From positions 11,794 to 75,793 of the forward strand of contig JAZQGC010000002.1 in assembly GCA_045539815.1 (NCBI GenBank): a stretch of 64,000 bases of DNA. The letters are read 5' to 3'. This document shows, piece after piece, positions 18,914 to 61,664 of the stretch. The DNA is from Candidatus Enterousia sp. Its GTDB lineage: Bacteria; Pseudomonadota; Alphaproteobacteria; Rs-D84. The notes below the pieces were generated by a model. That model had not been told where the DNA came from, did not search any database, and was given only the letters and a program-made list of their open reading frames with translations. The translations under genes were made by a program, and so were the position numbers. Position 1 is the first letter of the stretch. Each line of letters opens with the position of its first letter.

Positions 18914-19198
18914 TTATTGTTCAACCCATATCAATGTTCGACCAGACGCAGCTGTTGTAGAAGGCTGCCCCAGCGAAACAGTATCAAATCTGGTATCGGC
19001 ACCAGACGCAACAGTTGAAGATGTTTGTCCAACTGGCAAACGATTTATATTGACCGTACCAGATGTCAAATTTGACGCATTAGTTGTCTTGCTGAAATTA
19101 TCATCAACATACTTAACGCTGGAAACATCTGCGGCAAAAGCCGGCATAACAAACATACCAATGATTGCAAAAACATGTATCGCTTTTTTTATTTTCAT
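18914..19198 (-). CDS. small secreted protein with a tail-fibre-like motif
   Basis: Start at MKIKK, preceded by GGGGGGAAG. Signal peptide ...MPAFA/AD. Contains LPVGQTSSTVASGADTRFD. Confidence 0.55.
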   Translation of the reverse strand: MKIKKAIHVFAIIGMFVMPAFAADVSSVKYVDDNFSKTTNASNLTSGTVNINRLPVGQTSSTVASGADTRFDTVSLGQPSTTAASGRTLIWVEQ

Positions 19199-19218
19199 CA
19201 CGCTTCCCCCCAGCATTT

Positions 19219-19635
19219 TTAATTTTCGACATGATAATATGCACCATTATGATACACATTAACATCACCAGATGATTTACCACTGACCAACTTGCTGTAA
19301 CATACGGTACCATTTGACGTTCTGAACGCCAATGCGGGACTTGTTTCCTTGGTACTGTATATATTATAAGATTTACCCGTACCTGTCTTTAACTTGGTAA
19401 TTCCACCGCCACACAATTCAGCAAAGAACATACATATTTTATCTGTGGTATTTGAACAATTTGCAAACATCGTTGTTCCAATCGCAGTTGACCCAGACGG
19501 ACAAGAATCTCCTAATTCAATGGTAATCGCCGGTTTTTCCAACGAAACATATCCAGACGGACAGGTTGCTGCACCTGCAACTGCTGTTGCAAAGCAACAC
19601 AACAAAGTCATAAAAACTGCGGATATTTTATTCAT
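19219..19635 (-). CDS. secreted Cys-rich protein with CPSG modules and the TTPSL-type C-terminal domain
   Basis: Signal peptide MNKISAVFMTLLCCFATAVAGA. The C-terminal ~58 aa align to the C-termini of the 45731 gene and the giant 55878 gene. Confidence 0.65.
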   Translation of the reverse strand: MNKISAVFMTLLCCFATAVAGAATCPSGYVSLEKPAITIELGDSCPSGSTAIGTTMFANCSNTTDKICMFFAELCGGGITKLKTGTGKSYNIYSTKETSPALAFRTSNGTVCYSKLVSGKSSGDVNVYHNGAYYHVEN

Positions 19636-20144: not shown

Positions 20145-20221
20145 TGGTGGATGTGATTGGACTCGAACCGACGACCTCTTCGATGTGAACGAAGCGCTCT
20201 AACCAACTGAGCTACACATCC
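20145..20221 (-). tRNA. tRNA-Val (anticodon CAC), CCA encoded
   Basis: Hand-folded cloverleaf: acceptor GGATGTG/CACATCC, anticodon loop TTCACAT. One C-A mismatch in the T stem. Confidence 0.85.
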
Positions 20222-44690: not shown

Positions 44691-45221
44691 TCAATCACCA
44701 TAACCAACGGTCGCCAACATACATTGCCATGTTCTGGAACCGTAGTTATCAGTACCATTAACGTCTCTTTTTGATAAATAAGCCGCACAGTTAGCCGCAC
44801 AATTTTCCGAACATTTTTTGTTGTATATATAAAAATAAATCCATCCCGATTCGAACGGGTGTGTCATTTTACACCAACAATATTCACCATCATTACGTCC
44901 ATAAAAATTGTCGTTCACATCACCATTTGATGCAGCGGTTTGCCCCCAATACCCAGATATATAATTCGGTCCTGCACAACTGTGCAGTGGCAAATTCGTT
45001 TTATCCGACTTTAATGTACTGCACGACGCAACGCCACTGACCGCGCCAAAACCATTAATATTTATACGCCAATCAAAACCATCACCCACATATCCGGATG
45101 CGGTTGTGTTTTTGTAATCCGTTCCCAATACAACCTGGTCCGATTTGGCGCAAAATGTCGCACCAGACGCAATCAACGGGCACAACGCAATATATAAAAC
45201 AACCAAAATATTCCTGAACAT
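44691..45221 (-). CDS. secreted Cys-rich protein, CWC family
   Basis: Start at MFRNILVVLYIALCPLIASGA. Motifs GVASCS and YCWCKMTHPFESGWIYF...C...C...CA. Confidence 0.65.
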   Translation of the reverse strand: MFRNILVVLYIALCPLIASGATFCAKSDQVVLGTDYKNTTASGYVGDGFDWRININGFGAVSGVASCSTLKSDKTNLPLHSCAGPNYISGYWGQTAASNGDVNDNFYGRNDGEYCWCKMTHPFESGWIYFYIYNKKCSENCAANCAAYLSKRDVNGTDNYGSRTWQCMLATVGYGD

Positions 45222-45238
45222 CAGTATCCCTTTTGTTA

Positions 45239-45721
45239 TTACCATACTGCTTCGAATAATTTATCCCGAAACGCATAACTGCCCACGACACCATCGGCGC
45301 ACAGGCGCGCACATCCCGACGTACACAAATCCACACTGTCATATGAACGCAAATACATAAAATAACTGGTCGCGGGACGACGCAACGCACACCAACAATG
45401 TGCCCCCATATCATCAGCCGGCACGACCTGATTTCCCGTTACAACCGTATATTGCGCCCCCGCAGAAAATTCACTGCACGACGCAACACCGCGCAAGAAC
45501 CGAAATGTACCGTTCATCGATGACATTGTGTCGTAATCAACGTCAACCCGCCAATTCATACCATCAATCTGGGGCGCGCCATACTTAACAGAATTATCCG
45601 TATCCTTGTCCATCGTAACCACGACCGAAAAATCGGTCTGACACATCACCCCAATTGCCACACCGGGCAGGGCACATAACAACATCATCACACACCAGAT
45701 AAATTTACCTTGTATAATCAT
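45239..45721 (-). CDS. secreted Cys-rich protein, CWC family
   Basis: Signal peptide; motifs RGVASCS and HCWCALRRPATSYFMY...C...C...CA. Confidence 0.65.
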   Translation of the reverse strand: MIIQGKFIWCVMMLLCALPGVAIGVMCQTDFSVVVTMDKDTDNSVKYGAPQIDGMNWRVDVDYDTMSSMNGTFRFLRGVASCSEFSAGAQYTVVTGNQVVPADDMGAHCWCALRRPATSYFMYLRSYDSVDLCTSGCARLCADGVVGSYAFRDKLFEAVW

Positions 45722-45730
45722 TATCGGTCC

Positions 45731-46570
45731 TTATTTTACGGCATGATAAAAATTATCTTCGTACATTATGTTTATGGCGCCTTTGCTTTTTTCCGGCACC
45801 AGATTAACATAACATTGACGATTACCAGACTTAAAGTTTAACGATGGGGTCGTCAATTTTTTTGCATATATCGGGATTACCAAACCACCACCCGTACGCA
45901 AATAACGCATACTGACCCCCGTACTGGTCAACGCGCATAAATTGGCACAATTACCCAAATAGTTCATATCTTGTCCGGCGGCACACAAACGCACCGCCAA
46001 CTTTGTATCCGGCACATCAGTATACGGATACCCATGTATTGATATCAGGCTGTTATCTGTCAAATTCGAACCATCGTATGGCGAAACAAGACGTGTACCC
46101 GACGGACAATCAAGACCATTGGCCACAACACGCATTGAATCATTCGAAAACACATTATTATATCCCGCCGGACAATTTTCTGTATCAGGCGCATACGACA
46201 CACAACCCACACCATCAAAATATCCGTTTTCACACATGGTTACCGGAATTTGATTTAACATATACACCCCAGGCTTACGCATCCGATGCGTGGCCTCTGG
46301 GCATGTACCATCAGTCCGGGGCATACCAATTCCAAACAAATTTACTGTGATATAATTATCGGCACAATAATCATTTGCGACATATTTCTGACATGAATAT
46401 TCAACTGTTTTTGTGGTTGTTTCTGCGGCCTCATCAGTTATTTCTGTAACCGTCATCACCGGATATCCACCATCACACAGCATCATATCGGGCAGGGCGC
46501 CATACACAGTCGCCGAACACATGAACATCATAAAAAATATAAATATCCCCCACATATCGCCATCACGCAT
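45731..46570 (-). CDS. secreted Cys-rich protein with CP[AS]G modules and the TTPSL-type C-terminal domain
   Basis: Signal peptide IFIFFMMFMCSATVYG. C-terminus IPIYAKKLTTPSLNFKSGNRQCYVNLVPEKSKGAINIMYEDNFYHAVK. Confidence 0.65.
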   Translation of the reverse strand: MRDGDMWGIFIFFMMFMCSATVYGALPDMMLCDGGYPVMTVTEITDEAAETTTKTVEYSCQKYVANDYCADNYITVNLFGIGMPRTDGTCPEATHRMRKPGVYMLNQIPVTMCENGYFDGVGCVSYAPDTENCPAGYNNVFSNDSMRVVANGLDCPSGTRLVSPYDGSNLTDNSLISIHGYPYTDVPDTKLAVRLCAAGQDMNYLGNCANLCALTSTGVSMRYLRTGGGLVIPIYAKKLTTPSLNFKSGNRQCYVNLVPEKSKGAINIMYEDNFYHAVK

Positions 46571-49084: not shown

Positions 49085-50149
49085 ATGAAAAAAGTACTTT
49101 CATACACAACCTGCGCCCTGCTGCTTACCGGTATTACCAACACAACCAACGCCACACCGGCGGCAACATACGCAAACAACATTACCACAAACAATATCAG
49201 CGCCCTGCAACACACAATCGTAAACACCGCATTTAACAATCTGCACGGGAACAAAACAACAAATACCACAACCACAAAGAACAACAATTCCCATGACATA
49301 TACGGTCGCGCACCAATGTACGGCACAATGTCCCAATACGGCGAATACAACGACGACGGACGCAGTGGCGGCGACAAAAGCAACGCCGCACTGAACAACA
49401 TACAATTCACATGGCAACACAACGCAGACCGCGTAAAATTTAACGAATTCGCACCACTTGATACCGACTCTGACCTGATACTTGTCAATCTGATTGGGAA
49501 CGAGTATAATATCGGCACAGTAAAAAACACATGGGGAATATACACTGGTTACATTGGCACAACCCAAGAAAACAATCAAATAAACATTGACGAACAAGGC
49601 GGATATTTTGGACTTGCAAACAATTTCAATATACAAAAATTAAACATAAAAACAACAATTAACGCCGGCGCATTGGACAATTCGGTCGACACCACAAACG
49701 GCACAGACGATTATACAAACTTTTGGATTGGCGCCGCCACCAGAATATCATACGATATAAAACTGGACCCTTCATTAATCCTGCGCCCAGAAATATACGC
49801 AGGATACACATGGATTAAATCAGACGACTACACATCCGCATCGGGCCAATTCATAAACAACAGCAATACAAATTCTTTTGAAATAACCCCAGCCATCAAT
49901 ATCACAAAACATGTTGGCAATAATTGGTATTGGACATTGAACACAAAATATATAATCATTACCAACAACGACAAAAACATAATCGTAAACAATACAAAGT
50001 TAAAAGAATTAGATATTGGAAACTTTTTTGAATATGGTTTAACCATAAACAAACAGTTTGATAATACAGATTTTTCCATCAATATCGGCCGACACGACGG
50101 CGACAGATATGGTTGGTTTGGCGGATTAAATATGCGCTATATATTCTAA
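49085..50149 (+). CDS. outer-membrane beta-barrel protein (autotransporter beta-domain-like, minimal passenger)
   Basis: Signal peptide ...TNTTNA, alternating beta-strand pattern, and a C-terminal ...GGLNMRYIF with terminal Phe. Confidence 0.6.
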   Translation: MKKVLSYTTCALLLTGITNTTNATPAATYANNITTNNISALQHTIVNTAFNNLHGNKTTNTTTTKNNNSHDIYGRAPMYGTMSQYGEYNDDGRSGGDKSNAALNNIQFTWQHNADRVKFNEFAPLDTDSDLILVNLIGNEYNIGTVKNTWGIYTGYIGTTQENNQINIDEQGGYFGLANNFNIQKLNIKTTINAGALDNSVDTTNGTDDYTNFWIGAATRISYDIKLDPSLILRPEIYAGYTWIKSDDYTSASGQFINNSNTNSFEITPAINITKHVGNNWYWTLNTKYIIITNNDKNIIVNNTKLKELDIGNFFEYGLTINKQFDNTDFSINIGRHDGDRYGWFGGLNMRYIF

Positions 50150-55877: not shown

Positions 55878-58800
55878 TCACAATACGCTATCATCATGCA
55901 CCCAATATGGAACCCCCTTGTCAACGATGCGCAAGGCGCGATTTGATTCCGTATTCATTTTTGTTTCTGTTTTGGACATATCGCCATAATATACCACCCC
56001 GTCGACACGCACATGTAACGATGGCGTTGTACGCTTTACTGAACGCAAATACAGTTTATTTTCACCAATATGTAAAATACGTCCGCAATCAGTACTTTCA
56101 TCTGCCCCCTTGCCATATCCGATTGTACGCAACGCATCTTTACACTGATTGCGTCCGACATATTGTAACGACAACTGTTGCAATATATCACCGGCATTGT
56201 TATCTAACTGTCCTTCTGCCGACGGCGACCAGTAACCATCGCCAACCTTGGCACAAGTATTTTCAATCGCATCTTGTGGGCCGGTTGCGACATATACATT
56301 ATTTATCAGATCATTAACATCGGTTATATCTGCGTTATGTGGCGACCAATATCCTGGCCCGCACATCAGTGCGACACCTGTACAATTTGCATCATACAAT
56401 TTTGTCACAGGGTTGTAATCACAGCTGACATAGAATAATCCCCGTTCATTTACCTTGTCATCATATCCTGCATCAACATTTGTATTGTTTTGAAGATCCA
56501 AATACCAACGTTCTGCGTATCCGAACACCGCACGACATTGGTTTGCCGCGGAATGCGGCGCATGTTCCAACGCATCCAACAATTCTGCACTTGCTGCGCC
56601 ATATTTTTCTGTTATTGTCGGACACTTCTCTAATCCTTGGACTTGACCATTATATTCCCAGGCCCCGCCCGTACAGAACGAATCGTCTGGACATTCTGCG
56701 CAAACATCACCATTTAAATAATATCCGGCATCACAAGATATAGAACTGATAGACCATTGTGCAGTCAAATTAATCACCGCATTATTTTCAGCCGTCGCAT
56801 TAACCAAAGACGCCCCAGGTTGAATCACCTTGCCATCGCAACTGCCACCGCTGCACAACCAACCAACAAAATTATAACCAGTCATTACAAACGCATTATT
56901 TTCCGCGACACAGCCACCATCATAGTTACAAACAACATCTGCCATATCACCAGACCCAAGGCCCGCATTATATTTCACAGTAAATGTGTTTGCCACGCAT
57001 GCATTTGTTGTTACGGTTGTGCCACCATTATAATTATATCCCGTGTTACATGTACAGCTTGCCTGACCTGTGGCGCCATTTGTGGACGAATTTGCCGGAC
57101 ACGCATTACACTGTGCGCTGTTTGTTTCTGTCCAAGTATTTGCACCACATGTTGTAATATTGTTATCGGAACATGCAGACCCCGCCGGACAAGTTACACA
57201 TACACCATTGTTCATATAAAGACCAGAATAACAACTGCTGACAGAACACAAATCACAATTTGTATATGCGCCTGTTTCTTCTTCGTACATACAAGACCTG
57301 ACACCTGTTCCTACTTCCGTGGAACACTCAACCACAGGCAACATACACTCTTCAATAGATCCCGCAGTATCTGTCAGCGTTACACCCCCATCCGGACATG
57401 CGTGTGTGATATTTGTGTCAGAAAACATACATTTTTCGGTTTCTTCTTCTGGCAGGCTAACACATTGTTCTGCACCAGCAGACCAATTATTATATCCAAC
57501 AGGAACACATATATTGTTAATAGCTTCTTGTGGATTTGACGCATAAACCATTAAAGACATAACGTCGATATTACCATATTGAACATCCAGAATATCGTTA
57601 TCAAAATTAGAAACGTACCCCGTACCACAAAAAGTTGCATACCCGCGACAATCGCTATCATATTGTTGTGTTGTTGTATTATATTTACAATCTACCACAT
57701 AATATCCTCTATTATTGGCATTCCAATCAAAATCGTCACCATCAATATTTGTCTCTCCAAGATCAGCAAACCATTTTGGAAGATACACAAATAAAGCTCT
57801 ACATTGGTTAACCGACGAATTGCGCGTCTCATCTAAAAGCCCCCCATTGTATGCGCTTGCCGCACCATACTTGTTTGTTACTGCTGGGCAGTCTGTTCTG
57901 CCGTGGATTCCACCGTCATATAACCACTCGCCACCTTCGCAATAATATTCATCTTCGCAGTCGATACAATATAAACCATCCAGATATTGTCCTGCTGGGC
58001 ATGAAATAATTACAGGTTTCCATTGTGCAACAAAAACCAAGCTATCCATATTTACATCCGTCAAATCTGACACAGTTTGCCCATCTGCAAATTTTTCGCC
58101 ATTAAACAGCCAACCATCAAATTCATGTCCCGCTTTATAGAAAGTGTTTTTATTTAAAACACATGATGTACCATATGTGCATGTTGTATCTGTCATACTG
58201 CCATCGCCACCATTTGCATTGTATCTGATGGTGTATGTGATTGGTTCCCATTGTGCATACAAGAACAAACCTGCGCCCTGTGTTGACGATGCATTTTTAA
58301 GGTTTGCACCATCTTCAAAATACTGGCTTTTATCGTAATTTGCCCAATTCTTGAATATGTATCCCGTTTTTGTATATGTGTTTGCGCTAATGTAACAGTC
58401 GGAATTATATGTACATGTTGTGTTTGCCATACTGCCATCGCCACCATTAGATACATATATGACAGTAAATGTATTTGCCGTCCATTGCGCTGTAAATGTA
58501 ACACTGGCACCGTTCGTGCTGGTCAGATTGGTATCAATGGTCGAACCCGACTGATATGTTGTTGAAACATACTGCCATCCAGCAAATGTATAACCAGTTT
58601 TTGTTGGTTTTGTGCTGGATACGGTACAATTTTGACCGTATGTACATATTGTGTCTGCTATACTGCCATCGCCACCGTTTGTATTATACTTAATTGTATA
58701 TGTGTTTGCCACGCATGCATTTGTTGTTACGGTTGTGCCACCATTATAATTATATCCCGTGTTACATGTACAGCTTGCCTGACCCGTGGCACCATTTGTG

Positions 58801-61664
58801 GATGAATTTGTTGGACACGCACTAATAATTCCTGTATCTGTATAATTTACTTTACCACCAGGACACATATTATTCACCGGACAATTTGTCACTGTGTCCG
58901 CACCAGAAATCGCAATATATTTTCCTGATTCAACAGTCATTTGACACTGATTTATCGCCGTCAGCCCTGCACCGCCATCGTCATATCCGTTTGGACATGG
59001 GGTACAAGACACCTTGCCACCAAAATAAGATTCAAATCCTGTCATGTATTGATATTCGCCTGCTGGACACGATGTTATCAGCCCAGAACCAGTGAAAACT
59101 TCTGTCATTTGATCTGTTGCCGTTGTTGTCTTGCTGATACCGGCAAACAAATCGTTCGGAATATCGCCATGAACTTTTGAACAACCATAGAACATTCTTC
59201 TGAACATTCTTGTATTTGGTGTGCCACTGATGCCAGCAAACAAATCTGATGGAATTTCACTGTTTAACGACGAACAGCCTTCGAATGTACTGTTAAACAT
59301 TCTTTCTGTCGGCACACCGTTAAATGTACCAAAGAAATTCGAAGGTATTGTAAAGTTTAATTTAGAACACCCCCAAAACGTATTATTATACATATAATCC
59401 GCTGGGGCCCCACTGATACGTGCAAATAAATCAGATGGCACAGTTTCCAGATTTGAACATCCTGCAAATGTATCCGCAAACATATAACCTGCTGGTTTTC
59501 CATAAATACCGCCAAACAGTCCACTTGGGATTGTTGTCAAACTTTTACATTGTGCAAACGTTGCATTAAACAATGCAGACGCAGGACTGCCGTCTAATCC
59601 ACCAAACAACCCAGCTGGCACAGTCTTCAACGCTGTTCCCTCGAACGTAGATCTAAACATGTTGCTGACAGGCTGACTTGTAATCCCATCAAATAACGTC
59701 GAAGGTATAGATTCCAGATTTGTACTATTATAGAAAGACTGAAAGAAACGCGGTTGTGATCCATTTGACAATGTACCAAATATCGCCCCCAGACTGCCTG
59801 ACAGACTTTTGATATTTGTATTTCCATTAAAAGTGATTGCTGCCATATTTGACGCAGAATTATATTCGGTCGCCTGACCAGAGATACCAATCACATAAGA
59901 TTTTGATCCGATTAATTCATATGTAAAAGATTCTAAATTCGTATTTGTTTTATTGATAACCTTAATAGCAGATCCATCACCTAAATCAACATAAAAAGTC
60001 CCCTTTGCAGTTAATGAAAAAGTAAAAGCTTCAGGATTGTCAACTGTTGTAATTTCAACCTCGGGCACAAATGGTGTACATGCTGTTGTTGTAGTTGTCA
60101 GCGAACCATTTGCCAAATATCCATTTTTACACGTACAATATGATGAACCTGCGGAACTGGTTGAATTTTCTGGACATGTGTAAACACCAAATGTGTCATT
60201 ATATGTCCCGCTGCTGCACCCTGGCACAGAACCACCTGGACAATAAGAACCCGCTGGACACGTTGATACTTCACGATACAACATTGAACGTGATGTATTT
60301 GAAGAACAATAATCATCCAAATAACGCGTCTTCAGATAATACCCCGGATTTACCCTGTACCAATATATAGAACTGGTGGTCATACCATACTTACCCGCGG
60401 ACGAATCATAACGAACGCCTTCATATGTAACATATCCCGCATTTGTTGTAAAACCATATACAGCCGCACATCGATTAATATCAGATAATCCAACATTTAT
60501 CCAAAATGCATATTCGTTTCTGCCGTCATCAAATACATAATCCGATCCCGGCAACACGGTTGGTTTATGTGTACTTGGGTCCGGACATGCGTTTGCGCCA
60601 CCTGTTGAACCATAAGTAACCTTGACACCACCAGGACAATAATTATTTTCTGAACACGTTGTCTGTGCAGAATCATTTGCATTTGCAATATATTTTCCCG
60701 CCGTGGTTGTTACATAGCACTTATTCTGTGCGGTATTCCCTGCGTCTGATGTATATCCTGTTGGACAAGTATACATCAAATGAGTTGCGCCATCGTATGT
60801 TCGTGTTCCCCCCGGACAGTAATATCCGGCCTTACACGTTTCACAGGTTGTTATGTTCAAATATTTTCCCGCAGAACAGGTATAGCTATTTGCAGTCCAT
60901 TGTGCGGTAAATGTAACACTGCCACCATTTGTGCTGGTCAGATTAGATACGGTCGCGCCCGCCTGATATGTTGTTGAACCATACTTCCATCCGGCAAATG
61001 TATAACCAGTCTTTGTTGGTTTTGTGCTGGATACGGTACAGTTTTGTCCGTATGTGCATGTTGTGTCGGATACCGCGCTGCCGCCCGCAGAATCGTATTT
61101 AATTGTGTAAGTATTTGCCGTCCATTGTGCATACAATGTTGCCTGATCATTACCATTGGGATTAGAACCTGTAATCGCCCCGGCACTTGATATTATTTGG
61201 CTGCCACCAGATGCGGCTGTATAAAAACCATTAAATGTATACCCTGTTCTGGTTGGTAATTGTGACGAACTTAACGTAGATATCGTGGTACCGATTGCCG
61301 CTGCAGATGTTGCAGGCGTTCCTGTTGTTTTCTTTAAACTGGTAAACCAGGCAACTCCCTTAACCGTATATAATTGTGCCAATCCACCCGAACCACCATT
61401 TGGGTTTAATGTAACCTTGTATGCCGGTGCATATGTGCCCCCAGGACAGAATTCTGCACGTGGCGCATAATCCGTACAAGAAGAACATATATTTCCAGTT
61501 GTTGGTGTACCATTATAAGCACCGTTATACCTCATAAAAAACCCAGCTCCACATGAAGTATATTTTACGGCAGAGTCACAAACATAGCCGGCCGCATAAA
61601 CATTTGCTGCCAACCCAAAGAACATCAAAAAAACCGTAAAAAGCCCAACAAATACGCGCTTCAA
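55878..61664 (-). CDS. giant (1928 aa) mosaic surface protein: Listeria-Bacteroides (Flg_new) repeats, BspA/DUF285-like LRRs, ephrin-receptor/VSP-like Cys repeats, TTPSL-type C-terminal domain
   Basis: Uninterrupted 5.8 kb ORF. Signal peptide MKRVFVGLFTVFLMFFGLAANVYA. Flg_new units end TGYTFAGW...TAQWTAN. There are about 24-aa F..TF.GC..L...IPS.LF repeats around 59100-59720. CxxGxY...CxxCxxGYYCPGG motifs occur throughout. Confidence 0.85.
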   Translation of the reverse strand: MKRVFVGLFTVFLMFFGLAANVYAAGYVCDSAVKYTSCGAGFFMRYNGAYNGTPTTGNICSSCTDYAPRAEFCPGGTYAPAYKVTLNPNGGSGGLAQLYTVKGVAWFTSLKKTTGTPATSAAAIGTTISTLSSSQLPTRTGYTFNGFYTAASGGSQIISSAGAITGSNPNGNDQATLYAQWTANTYTIKYDSAGGSAVSDTTCTYGQNCTVSSTKPTKTGYTFAGWKYGSTTYQAGATVSNLTSTNGGSVTFTAQWTANSYTCSAGKYLNITTCETCKAGYYCPGGTRTYDGATHLMYTCPTGYTSDAGNTAQNKCYVTTTAGKYIANANDSAQTTCSENNYCPGGVKVTYGSTGGANACPDPSTHKPTVLPGSDYVFDDGRNEYAFWINVGLSDINRCAAVYGFTTNAGYVTYEGVRYDSSAGKYGMTTSSIYWYRVNPGYYLKTRYLDDYCSSNTSRSMLYREVSTCPAGSYCPGGSVPGCSSGTYNDTFGVYTCPENSTSSAGSSYCTCKNGYLANGSLTTTTTACTPFVPEVEITTVDNPEAFTFSLTAKGTFYVDLGDGSAIKVINKTNTNLESFTYELIGSKSYVIGISGQATEYNSASNMAAITFNGNTNIKSLSGSLGAIFGTLSNGSQPRFFQSFYNSTNLESIPSTLFDGITSQPVSNMFRSTFEGTALKTVPAGLFGGLDGSPASALFNATFAQCKSLTTIPSGLFGGIYGKPAGYMFADTFAGCSNLETVPSDLFARISGAPADYMYNNTFWGCSKLNFTIPSNFFGTFNGVPTERMFNSTFEGCSSLNSEIPSDLFAGISGTPNTRMFRRMFYGCSKVHGDIPNDLFAGISKTTTATDQMTEVFTGSGLITSCPAGEYQYMTGFESYFGGKVSCTPCPNGYDDGGAGLTAINQCQMTVESGKYIAISGADTVTNCPVNNMCPGGKVNYTDTGIISACPTNSSTNGATGQASCTCNTGYNYNGGTTVTTNACVANTYTIKYNTNGGDGSIADTICTYGQNCTVSSTKPTKTGYTFAGWQYVSTTYQSGSTIDTNLTSTNGASVTFTAQWTANTFTVIYVSNGGDGSMANTTCTYNSDCYISANTYTKTGYIFKNWANYDKSQYFEDGANLKNASSTQGAGLFLYAQWEPITYTIRYNANGGDGSMTDTTCTYGTSCVLNKNTFYKAGHEFDGWLFNGEKFADGQTVSDLTDVNMDSLVFVAQWKPVIISCPAGQYLDGLYCIDCEDEYYCEGGEWLYDGGIHGRTDCPAVTNKYGAASAYNGGLLDETRNSSVNQCRALFVYLPKWFADLGETNIDGDDFDWNANNRGYYVVDCKYNTTTQQYDSDCRGYATFCGTGYVSNFDNDILDVQYGNIDVMSLMVYASNPQEAINNICVPVGYNNWSAGAEQCVSLPEEETEKCMFSDTNITHACPDGGVTLTDTAGSIEECMLPVVECSTEVGTGVRSCMYEEETGAYTNCDLCSVSSCYSGLYMNNGVCVTCPAGSACSDNNITTCGANTWTETNSAQCNACPANSSTNGATGQASCTCNTGYNYNGGTTVTTNACVANTFTVKYNAGLGSGDMADVVCNYDGGCVAENNAFVMTGYNFVGWLCSGGSCDGKVIQPGASLVNATAENNAVINLTAQWSISSISCDAGYYLNGDVCAECPDDSFCTGGAWEYNGQVQGLEKCPTITEKYGAASAELLDALEHAPHSAANQCRAVFGYAERWYLDLQNNTNVDAGYDDKVNERGLFYVSCDYNPVTKLYDANCTGVALMCGPGYWSPHNADITDVNDLINNVYVATGPQDAIENTCAKVGDGYWSPSAEGQLDNNAGDILQQLSLQYVGRNQCKDALRTIGYGKGADESTDCGRILHIGENKLYLRSVKRTTPSLHVRVDGVVYYGDMSKTETKMNTESNRALRIVDKGVPYWVHDDSVL
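56985..57104. repeat. intragenic 120 bp near-identical direct repeat, copy 1
   Basis: Differs from 58701-58820 at only about 5 positions. Encodes CP(A/T)NSSTNGATGQASCTCNTGYNYNGGTTVTTNACVANT. Confidence 0.85.
58701..58820. repeat. intragenic 120 bp near-identical direct repeat, copy 2
   Basis: See the 56985-57104 entry. Confidence 0.85.

Follow-up and report, generated by a model that had tools for sequence, protein, structure and literature searches.

The closest described counterparts of the element reported here are the C-terminal domains (CTDs) of the type IX secretion system (T9SS) in Bacteroidota, all-beta domains of ~70-100 amino acids that sit at the extreme C-terminus of Sec-exported proteins. 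The domain described below, termed TTPSL, resembles them in being a terminal all-beta domain that is found on cargo of varied size, on many proteins per genome, and within a restricted lineage. To our knowledge, the T9SS itself is confined to the Fibrobacteres-Chlorobi-Bacteroidetes group. LPXTG, PEP-CTERM, and GlyGly-CTERM signals are built from a short motif, a TM helix, and a basic tail, in that order, and the likeness to sortase, exosortase, and rhombosortase systems lies in a C-terminal element common to many exported proteins of one lineage. The YadA-type anchor (PF03895) is a short (~70 aa), beta-rich C-terminal domain of giant repetitive adhesins in Proteobacteria. Substrates of RTX-type type I secretion systems (T1SS) have no N-terminal Sec signal and are secreted unfolded. 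Dockerin-cohesin pairs offer a further parallel, with a small terminal module on many exported proteins and a dedicated partner that is either separate or part of the same polypeptide. Finally, the foldon of phage fibritin and the C-terminal chaperone domains of tailspikes nucleate folding or multimerization. A terminal module shared by variable exported proteins is an arrangement of a known kind.

The window analyzed here is a stretch of 64,000 nucleotides (C2:11794-75793) from a 0.95-Mb genome of Candidatus Enterousia, assembled in 43 contigs with 40% G+C and 98% complete. The transketolase encoded by this genome shares 59-73% identity with those of Candidatus Enterousia sp. MAGs from the guts of ruminants and other animals, against ~42% for the relatives that come next. 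Candidatus Enterousia (Rs-D84) comprises uncultured gut bacteria with genomes of ~0.9 Mb. The uncultured alphaproteobacterial order Rs-D84, to which Enterousia belongs, consists throughout of members with reduced genomes that are devoid of a TCA cycle and respiratory chains (PMC12306168). Because it has neither, Enterousia is probably dependent on other cells. The genome studied here encodes nine proteins with a TTPSL CTD, five of type I and four of type II, together with 14 proteins of a second family, CWC, which is described below. TTPSL is a lineage-specific, Sec-exported all-beta module of ~65 residues.

A first-pass annotation of the window, made from the letters alone, had aligned the C-termini of two small Cys-rich proteins and one giant protein. 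All three genes are present, and the quoted C-terminal sequences are exact to the letter (Table 1). Each of the proteins (138, 279, and 1928 aa) begins with a signal-peptide-like segment. The 138-aa protein has homologs at 99, 89, 85, and 64% identity, and the Flg_new repeats of the giant match Pfam PF09479 at E 5.8e-35. The annotation also drew attention to CP[SAGT]G modules common to the three proteins; these do occur in all of them but are generic Cys-repeat motifs and carry little information for that reason. A look for simple-sequence repeats, of the kind that form phase-variation tracts, was negative both within the window's CTD genes and directly ahead of them.

Table 1. Positions of the CTD and CWC features within the 64,000-nucleotide window.
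Feature	Positions	Strand	Basis
138-aa exported protein gene	19219..19635	-	ORF; signal peptide, ~50 aa with two CPSG modules, type I CTD
Type I TTPSL CTD of the 138-aa protein, residues ~72-138	19222..19422	-	BLASTP, HMM match 75-136, AlphaFold
Divergent CWC gene, 147 aa	19628..20071	-	ORF; jackhmmer E 1.5e-14; A4 profile E 3.6e-18
279-aa exported Cys-rich protein gene, cassette gene 1 of 3	45731..46570	-	ORF; type I CTD by HMM
Type I CTD of the 279-aa protein, residues 209-279	45734..45946	-	BLASTP; E 1.6e-32 versus A1
CWC B-type gene, 160 aa, ends ...EAVW, cassette gene 2	45239..45721	-	jackhmmer E 6e-28; A4 profile E 2.2e-24
CWC C-like gene, 184 aa, CWCKMTHP, divergent, cassette gene 3	44691..45245	-	jackhmmer E 4e-41; A4 profile E 8.8e-28
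1928-aa mosaic exported protein gene	55878..61664	-	ORF; Flg_new, BspA-like, Cys repeats, type II tail
Type II CTD of the giant, residues 1860-1928 (CGRILHIG...YWVHDDSVL)	55881..56087	-	tail family, alignment, hhalign

The two small proteins do share a C-terminal domain, as had been claimed: BLASTP aligns 69 residues at the C-termini of both with 38% identity (E 7e-11). The giant shows no C-terminal BLASTP match to either of them. It scores 5.9 bits against an HMM of the five type I domains of its own genome and 10.2 bits against a 150-sequence type I HMM, in both cases over residues 1873-1901, which is the expected place, and in a six-frame type I search of the whole genome its tail is found at E 0.12, level with an unrelated chance match. 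With no BLASTP match, few bits, and this E value, membership of the giant would not be significant by these searches alone, and they are what would speak for a chance resemblance, with the domain being common to the two small proteins only.

The giant's tail has a large family of its own, however. Searched with its last 128 residues, 87 of the 121 genomes from the bacterial family yield matching tails, which sit on open frames from ~100 to >6000 aa and, in the genome studied here, also on three further small proteins (C4_2271_3053, C30_21358_22143, and C15_13889_14662). A clean alignment of 34 such type II tails gives the consensus CGR[IV]LH.G..K.YLRS.KKTTPSLNV.[IV].G..FYGNM....LR[IV]....TYSV[YH]DDS, compared with L[RK]T.TG..VPLY..K.TTP[AS][IL][NH][IV]...CY.NL...G..AINV.YN...YHT for type I. 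When the type II alignment is compared by hhalign with the 150-sequence type I alignment, the two match over 48 columns with a probability of 97.5% and E 5.7e-12, with the TTPSL motif and its flanking strands in register; a reversed alignment and 30 column shuffles, run as controls, all remain at E >= 0.025. Direct matches of the type II HMM to several type I domains have E values of 4e-8 to 2e-4, and three sites in relatives are matched by both type I and type II queries (G015:C12, G069:C7, and G015:C1). Judged by these profiles, types I and II are homologous and the giant's tail is a member of the superfamily, with a match at exactly the same terminal position as in the small proteins. The three-way alignment thus failed at the pairwise and single-profile level and held at the level of profile-profile comparison between families, and in view of the profile match, its controls, the cross-matches, and the shared sites, it was correct in substance. 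A chance resemblance of the giant is extremely improbable; the hhalign match, its controls, and the cross-matches refute it.

Both types are restricted to the lineage and occur within it in multiple copies per genome. Type I occurs in 53 of the 121 family genomes with up to 13 copies per ~0.9-Mb genome, and type II in 87 with up to 12, so that at least one CTD subtype is present in 91. In an order-level sample, 69 of 151 genomes carried type I, all of them from the Candidatus Enterousia (Rs-D84) family, and neither type was found in ~300 genomes from other families of Alphaproteobacteria. Within the genome studied here, the paralogous CTDs are only 26-36% identical to one another.

A word-indexed protein search found only two relatives for the giant's tail and four for the 138-aa protein, and a related-locus search of genome contigs with the 138-aa protein found none. 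When the profile of this genome's five type I domains (A1) was scored against 1.84 billion representative proteins, 387 clusters (50% identity) were found at E <= 1e-3, and 101 at E <= 1e-10. The CTD-bearing representative proteins range from 52 to 1765 aa, and six-frame open frames reach 6809 aa. An N-terminal hydrophobic segment is present in 113 of the 147 Met-initiated representatives, most of the others being short or fragment-like, and the median Cys content is 5%. Ahead of the CTD, the cargo modules include Flg_new, BspA-like, Cys-repeat, and lectin-like types. A single CTD stretch was matched in 149 of 150 representatives, and it ends no more than five residues from the C-terminus in 140 of them (93%). 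Three of the exceptions (P0090, P0114, and P0128) continue into what appear to be the mature parts of neighboring paralogs, of BspA-like/Cys-repeat type; in P0131, P0144, and the truncated P0065, a CWC domain follows the CTD; and the four remaining ones (P0031, P0040, P0102, and one other) have C-terminal extensions of only 8-52 residues. The first-pass description of an extreme C-terminal domain on exported proteins of very different size, here from ~50 to >6000 aa with mostly signal-like N-termini, is borne out by these counts, with the reservation that the domain lies internally, followed by further modules, in ~3% of representatives. Internal occurrence had been named in that annotation as something that would speak against its reading, and to this mild degree it is observed.

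Separate from these counts, module sharing was seen in a second setting. At three loci outside the window (C4:2271-3892, C30:21358-23092, and C15:13889-15548), the gene for a small type II protein (~260 aa) comes after one, on the same strand, for an exported protein of 250-315 aa that ends in ...(M/F)YD+..F(F/Y)YxQxGxxxxIAGP. The same module, in the form GMYD...FY.N.GTG.F, is found inside the large type I proteins P0040, P0046, P0049, and P0067, a second case of modules that occur as separate genes or fused.

A terminal domain of this kind had led the first-pass annotation to propose a sorting, anchoring, or secretion tag. In the strict sense of the T9SS, such a tag would be recognized by a hypothetical outer-membrane translocon or sortase-like enzyme and then either cleaved or attached covalently to the surface. 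The terminal position, the cargo of any size behind Sec signal peptides, the many copies per genome, and the narrow lineage range are all as such a tag would have them, and the CTD is also like established T9SS CTDs in its size and all-beta character. The hallmarks of the known tags are missing, however. There is no match to Por_Secre_tail (TIGR04183 / PF18962) or to TIGR04131 in the three window proteins (NCBIfam and Pfam), nor to the Pfam model in 88 domains. The Ig-like beta-sandwich of the T9SS CTDs finds no likeness in the predicted fold, for which the best PDB neighbor by Foldseek has E 0.87 with a query that included a low-confidence half. The host of TTPSL is an alphaproteobacterium, and its domain is sometimes internal, followed by further modules or a fused partner domain. 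Nor did a non-systematic look identify a candidate machine. A single genome maintains divergent paralogous subtypes, and type I has a conserved Cys with a partner Cys upstream, as expected of a stably folded module and not of a disposable tag. The part of the proposal that stood is the terminal position on variable exported proteins; a machine-recognized tag in the T9SS sense is, on this balance, unlikely.

The other known sorting signals and anchors were not matched either. C-terminal hydrophobic segments are absent from all 150 representatives (15-aa hydropathy peaks at 1.42), as are LPXTG and PEP from their last 60 aa, so neither a C-terminal TM helix nor a motif of this class is present, and LPXTG, PEP-CTERM, and GlyGly-CTERM signals were rejected on these grounds. 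An autotransporter or trimeric anchor was rejected on the basis that there is no match to PF03797 or PF03895 and that 135 of 150 representatives end in D, E, N, K, Q, or R, a polar residue in place of an aromatic one. The CTD also differs from the YadA-type anchor in its conserved disulfide Cys and in lacking an amphipathic membrane-strand pattern, being predicted to form a small globular domain. This agrees with the first-pass judgment that it is not an autotransporter barrel. A T1SS signal was likewise rejected, given the Sec-type N-terminal segments and the fact that the proteins are Cys-rich and presumably disulfide-bonded. Proteins of the classical kind appear to coexist with the TTPSL proteins, judging from two C-terminal endings: a 354-aa Asn/Thr-rich signal-peptide protein in the window (49085-50149, plus strand) ends in ...GGLNMRYIF, like an outer-membrane beta-barrel C-terminal signal, and a 1707-aa protein on contig C32 ends in ...VSGSYRF, as in C-terminal-aromatic outer-membrane or autotransporter-type proteins. 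TTPSL proteins do not have this ending.

The first-pass reader had not recognized the domain, and our searches bear this out. Pfam, NCBIfam, and PHROGs hold no family for the small CTD proteins or the giant's tail, a per-member Pfam scan of 88 CTD sequences gave no consistent family, and the best hit of a PDB sequence-profile search with the CTD has E 0.15. We modeled the mature 138-aa protein with AlphaFold2 from an 88-row alignment. Confidence is low for the first 50 residues (pLDDT 47-62). The CTD is predicted with pLDDT 94-98 as a compact domain of six beta strands, in which the nearly invariant T-x-P of TTPSL would lie in the loop before the third strand and an invariant Tyr in the last strand. 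The CTD is modeled as a compact disulfide-containing beta domain. Foldseek searches with this model, whose query included the low-confidence N-terminal half, returned a TM of at most 0.21 in the PDB and a best E of 0.72 in BFVD.

The surroundings of the 138-aa gene include a gene with a phage-related motif. Two nucleotides downstream, a 100-aa signal-peptide protein (18914-19216, minus strand) has hits to families of phage minor tail proteins (phrog_2012, E 3e-9; phrog_8780, E 2e-6), which come from a motif of the type LPxG..T..TVA.G.D.R. At its N-terminus it is similar to C9_89593_90471 and C39_9613_10881, two exported coiled-coil proteins of the same genome. By reading of the sequence, a tRNA-like stretch (20145-20220, minus strand) lies directly upstream of the string formed by the CWC, CTD, and tail-fiber-motif genes, so that the string would follow directly on a tRNA, a feature that often marks variable loci. 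As a conserved neighbor of the CTD, the tail-fiber-motif gene was rejected, since it was not found beside the CTD genes of relatives.

The compact beta fold, the single copy, and the terminal position would also suit a nucleus for the folding or oligomerization of elongated repeat proteins, one with no targeting role, and the tail-fiber-like motif encoded next to the 138-aa gene is suggestive in the same direction. The failure of that gene to recur beside relatives' CTD genes argues the other way, as do the lack of a significant PDB or BFVD neighbor for the CTD model and the presence of the CTD on proteins such as the 138-aa one, which have almost no passenger to fold. We regard a pure folding nucleus as very unlikely.

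The smallest proteins invite a different reading, in which the CTD is a conserved ligand-binding head, directed at host, prey, or glycan or toxin-like, that is carried on stalks of variable length, with the 135-146-aa proteins as soluble minimal versions. In the 138-aa class, more than half of the mature protein is CTD, and genes of this class occur in several copies, with six or more of 135-152 aa in G062. A binding site could be formed by the nearly invariant K-x-T-T-P loop together with the Tyr, and paralogous subtypes that are old and divergent would be expected if they had different specificities. Against this, the adhesin-like modules (Flg_new, LRR, and lectin-like) are N-terminal, where binding diversity normally lies, and a head would not need so consistent a position at the extreme C-terminus. 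A binding head is, in our assessment, quite unlikely.

A second unannotated family, CWC, bears on the choice among these readings. Its members are small signal-peptide Cys proteins with a core C[WF]C..(T/G)xP. The B type, of ~160-200 aa, ends in ...(D/E)(A/S)(V/M)W, and the C type, of ~160-185 aa, has the canonical form TDMCARDD...YCWCKMTHP...FGSVG[IL]. The C type alone forms 169 clusters at 90% identity, of which the few that are named are hypothetical proteins of Alphaproteobacteria MAGs, none with a Pfam domain. No Pfam, NCBIfam, or PHROG family was found for CWC proteins, and a PDB sequence-profile search gave nothing. CWC was folded alone, since in a MAFFT alignment for a natural CTD-CWC fusion the free-standing CWC proteins had their N-terminal halves wrongly placed in CTD columns; the AlphaFold model (pLDDT 94, pTM 0.87) has a five-strand sheet and two C-terminal helices, and Foldseek found no PDB neighbor for it, nothing being better than E 0.7. 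Homology between CWC and the CTD was considered and rejected (hhalign E 0.05). Up to 30 CWC copies occur per genome, with 21-30 in some genomes of 0.9 Mb (G081, G099, G027, G109, and G073), an expansion that is remarkable for genomes so small. In G091 (C2:133373-135373), three tandem CWC domains lie in one open frame of 2830 aa.

CWC genes are tied to CTD genes in three ways. First, two CWC genes follow, on the same strand, each of this genome's type I genes of the 280-360-aa class. This CTD-CWC-CWC cassette occurs four times here (window 44691-46570 and contigs C11, C24, and C41) and, by coordinates, in 12 other species-level genomes (G105, twice, and G114, G069, G091, G097, G104, G111, G120, G116, G068, G066, and G103). 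The order can also be inverted: the 147-aa CWC gene lies immediately upstream of the 138-aa CTD gene, its 3' end overlapping the CTD start by 8 nt, and the same order of CWC then CTD is found in L033 and G062:C4. Second, the two domains are fused in frame, for type I in P0131, P0144, G058:C2 (268-aa frame), and G055:C2 (288-aa frame), and for type II in L002-L005 and L009, which include G086:C5 and G090:C2 and thus giants of 3342 and 2722 aa, respectively. In the fusions the CWC signal peptide is gone, and ~5-12 residues lead from the last CTD strand to the first CWC cysteine. Third, the two families co-occur (odds ratio 4.8; Fisher p 4e-4, uncorrected for phylogeny): of the 121 genomes, 67 have both, 24 have the CTD without a detectable CWC, 11 have CWC alone, and 19 lack both. 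These counts indicate that the coupling is real but not obligatory. Six of the 14 CWC genes of this genome are orphans, and the 1.5 kb around most 135-146-aa members, and around the large proteins sampled, contain no CWC gene.

Taken together, the cassettes, the fusions, and the co-occurrence suggest that the CTD and CWC may be in physical contact. The parallel to dockerin-cohesin pairs is one of arrangement only: there is no homology, no Pfam dockerin match was found in two window proteins or 86 further family members, and the binding of CWC by the CTD would be read from operons and fusions. The cassettes and in-frame fusions therefore point at least as much to protein-protein assembly as to a tag recognized by a machine; read this way, the mechanism would consist at least partly of assembly with CWC. 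Some form of sorting or anchoring, the general idea of the first-pass annotation, remains the most economical class of explanation.

Our preferred reading, held tentatively and with a probability of roughly 0.4, is that the CTD is an envelope-anchoring or assembly foot of variable exported proteins. The CTD proteins would leave the cytoplasm by Sec and then form disulfides, and the foot would keep the variable N-terminal part, which consists of adhesin-like repeats or, in the smallest members, of only ~50 residues, in an envelope-associated assembly, presumably at the cell surface. To do so, the foot would bind a conserved partner, often one or two CWC proteins encoded directly downstream or fused behind it and in other cases some other envelope component. 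The data would fit TTPSL as the common C-terminal foot of large, rapidly diversifying, Cys-rich exported proteins in Enterousia/Rs-D84. Position, cargo diversity, export segments, narrow range, copy number, fold, and CWC coupling all speak for such a foot.

Several observations stand against it. CWC is not obligatory, given the 24 of 91 CTD-bearing genomes in which it was not detected, the 11 genomes with CWC and no CTD, and the many members without a CWC gene nearby; the CTD is also tolerated internally. The low identity of the CTD paralogs within a single genome would be odd if all of them bound one common site. This divergence and the CTD-only genomes fit none of the readings discussed here comfortably.

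A more far-reaching version of the foot can be envisaged, in which Alphaproteobacteria with reduced genomes would use TTPSL and CWC jointly as a surface-display system of a kind not known before. The foot would be recognized by a dedicated partner or machine that mounts dozens of interchangeable adhesins on the cell, with which this host-dependent bacterium would attach to its partner, and TTPSL would play, by analogy and without homology, the part that the T9SS CTD or dockerin-cohesin pairs play elsewhere. We give this extension little credence at present.

The CTD and CWC are both unannotated and are without detectable sequence or structural relatives. As modeled, they offer two confident and apparently new small folds for structural work, and their putative pairing is a concrete binary interaction amenable to testing in E. 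coli, with no need for a culture of Enterousia. An HMM of the CTD, in turn, provides a sequence handle with which to list the repertoire of variable exported proteins of the whole lineage. A visible portion of the small Enterousia genome is given over to exported Cys-rich proteins, and if the foot were a display or sorting signal, it would add a new way in which diderm bacteria display proteins on their surface.
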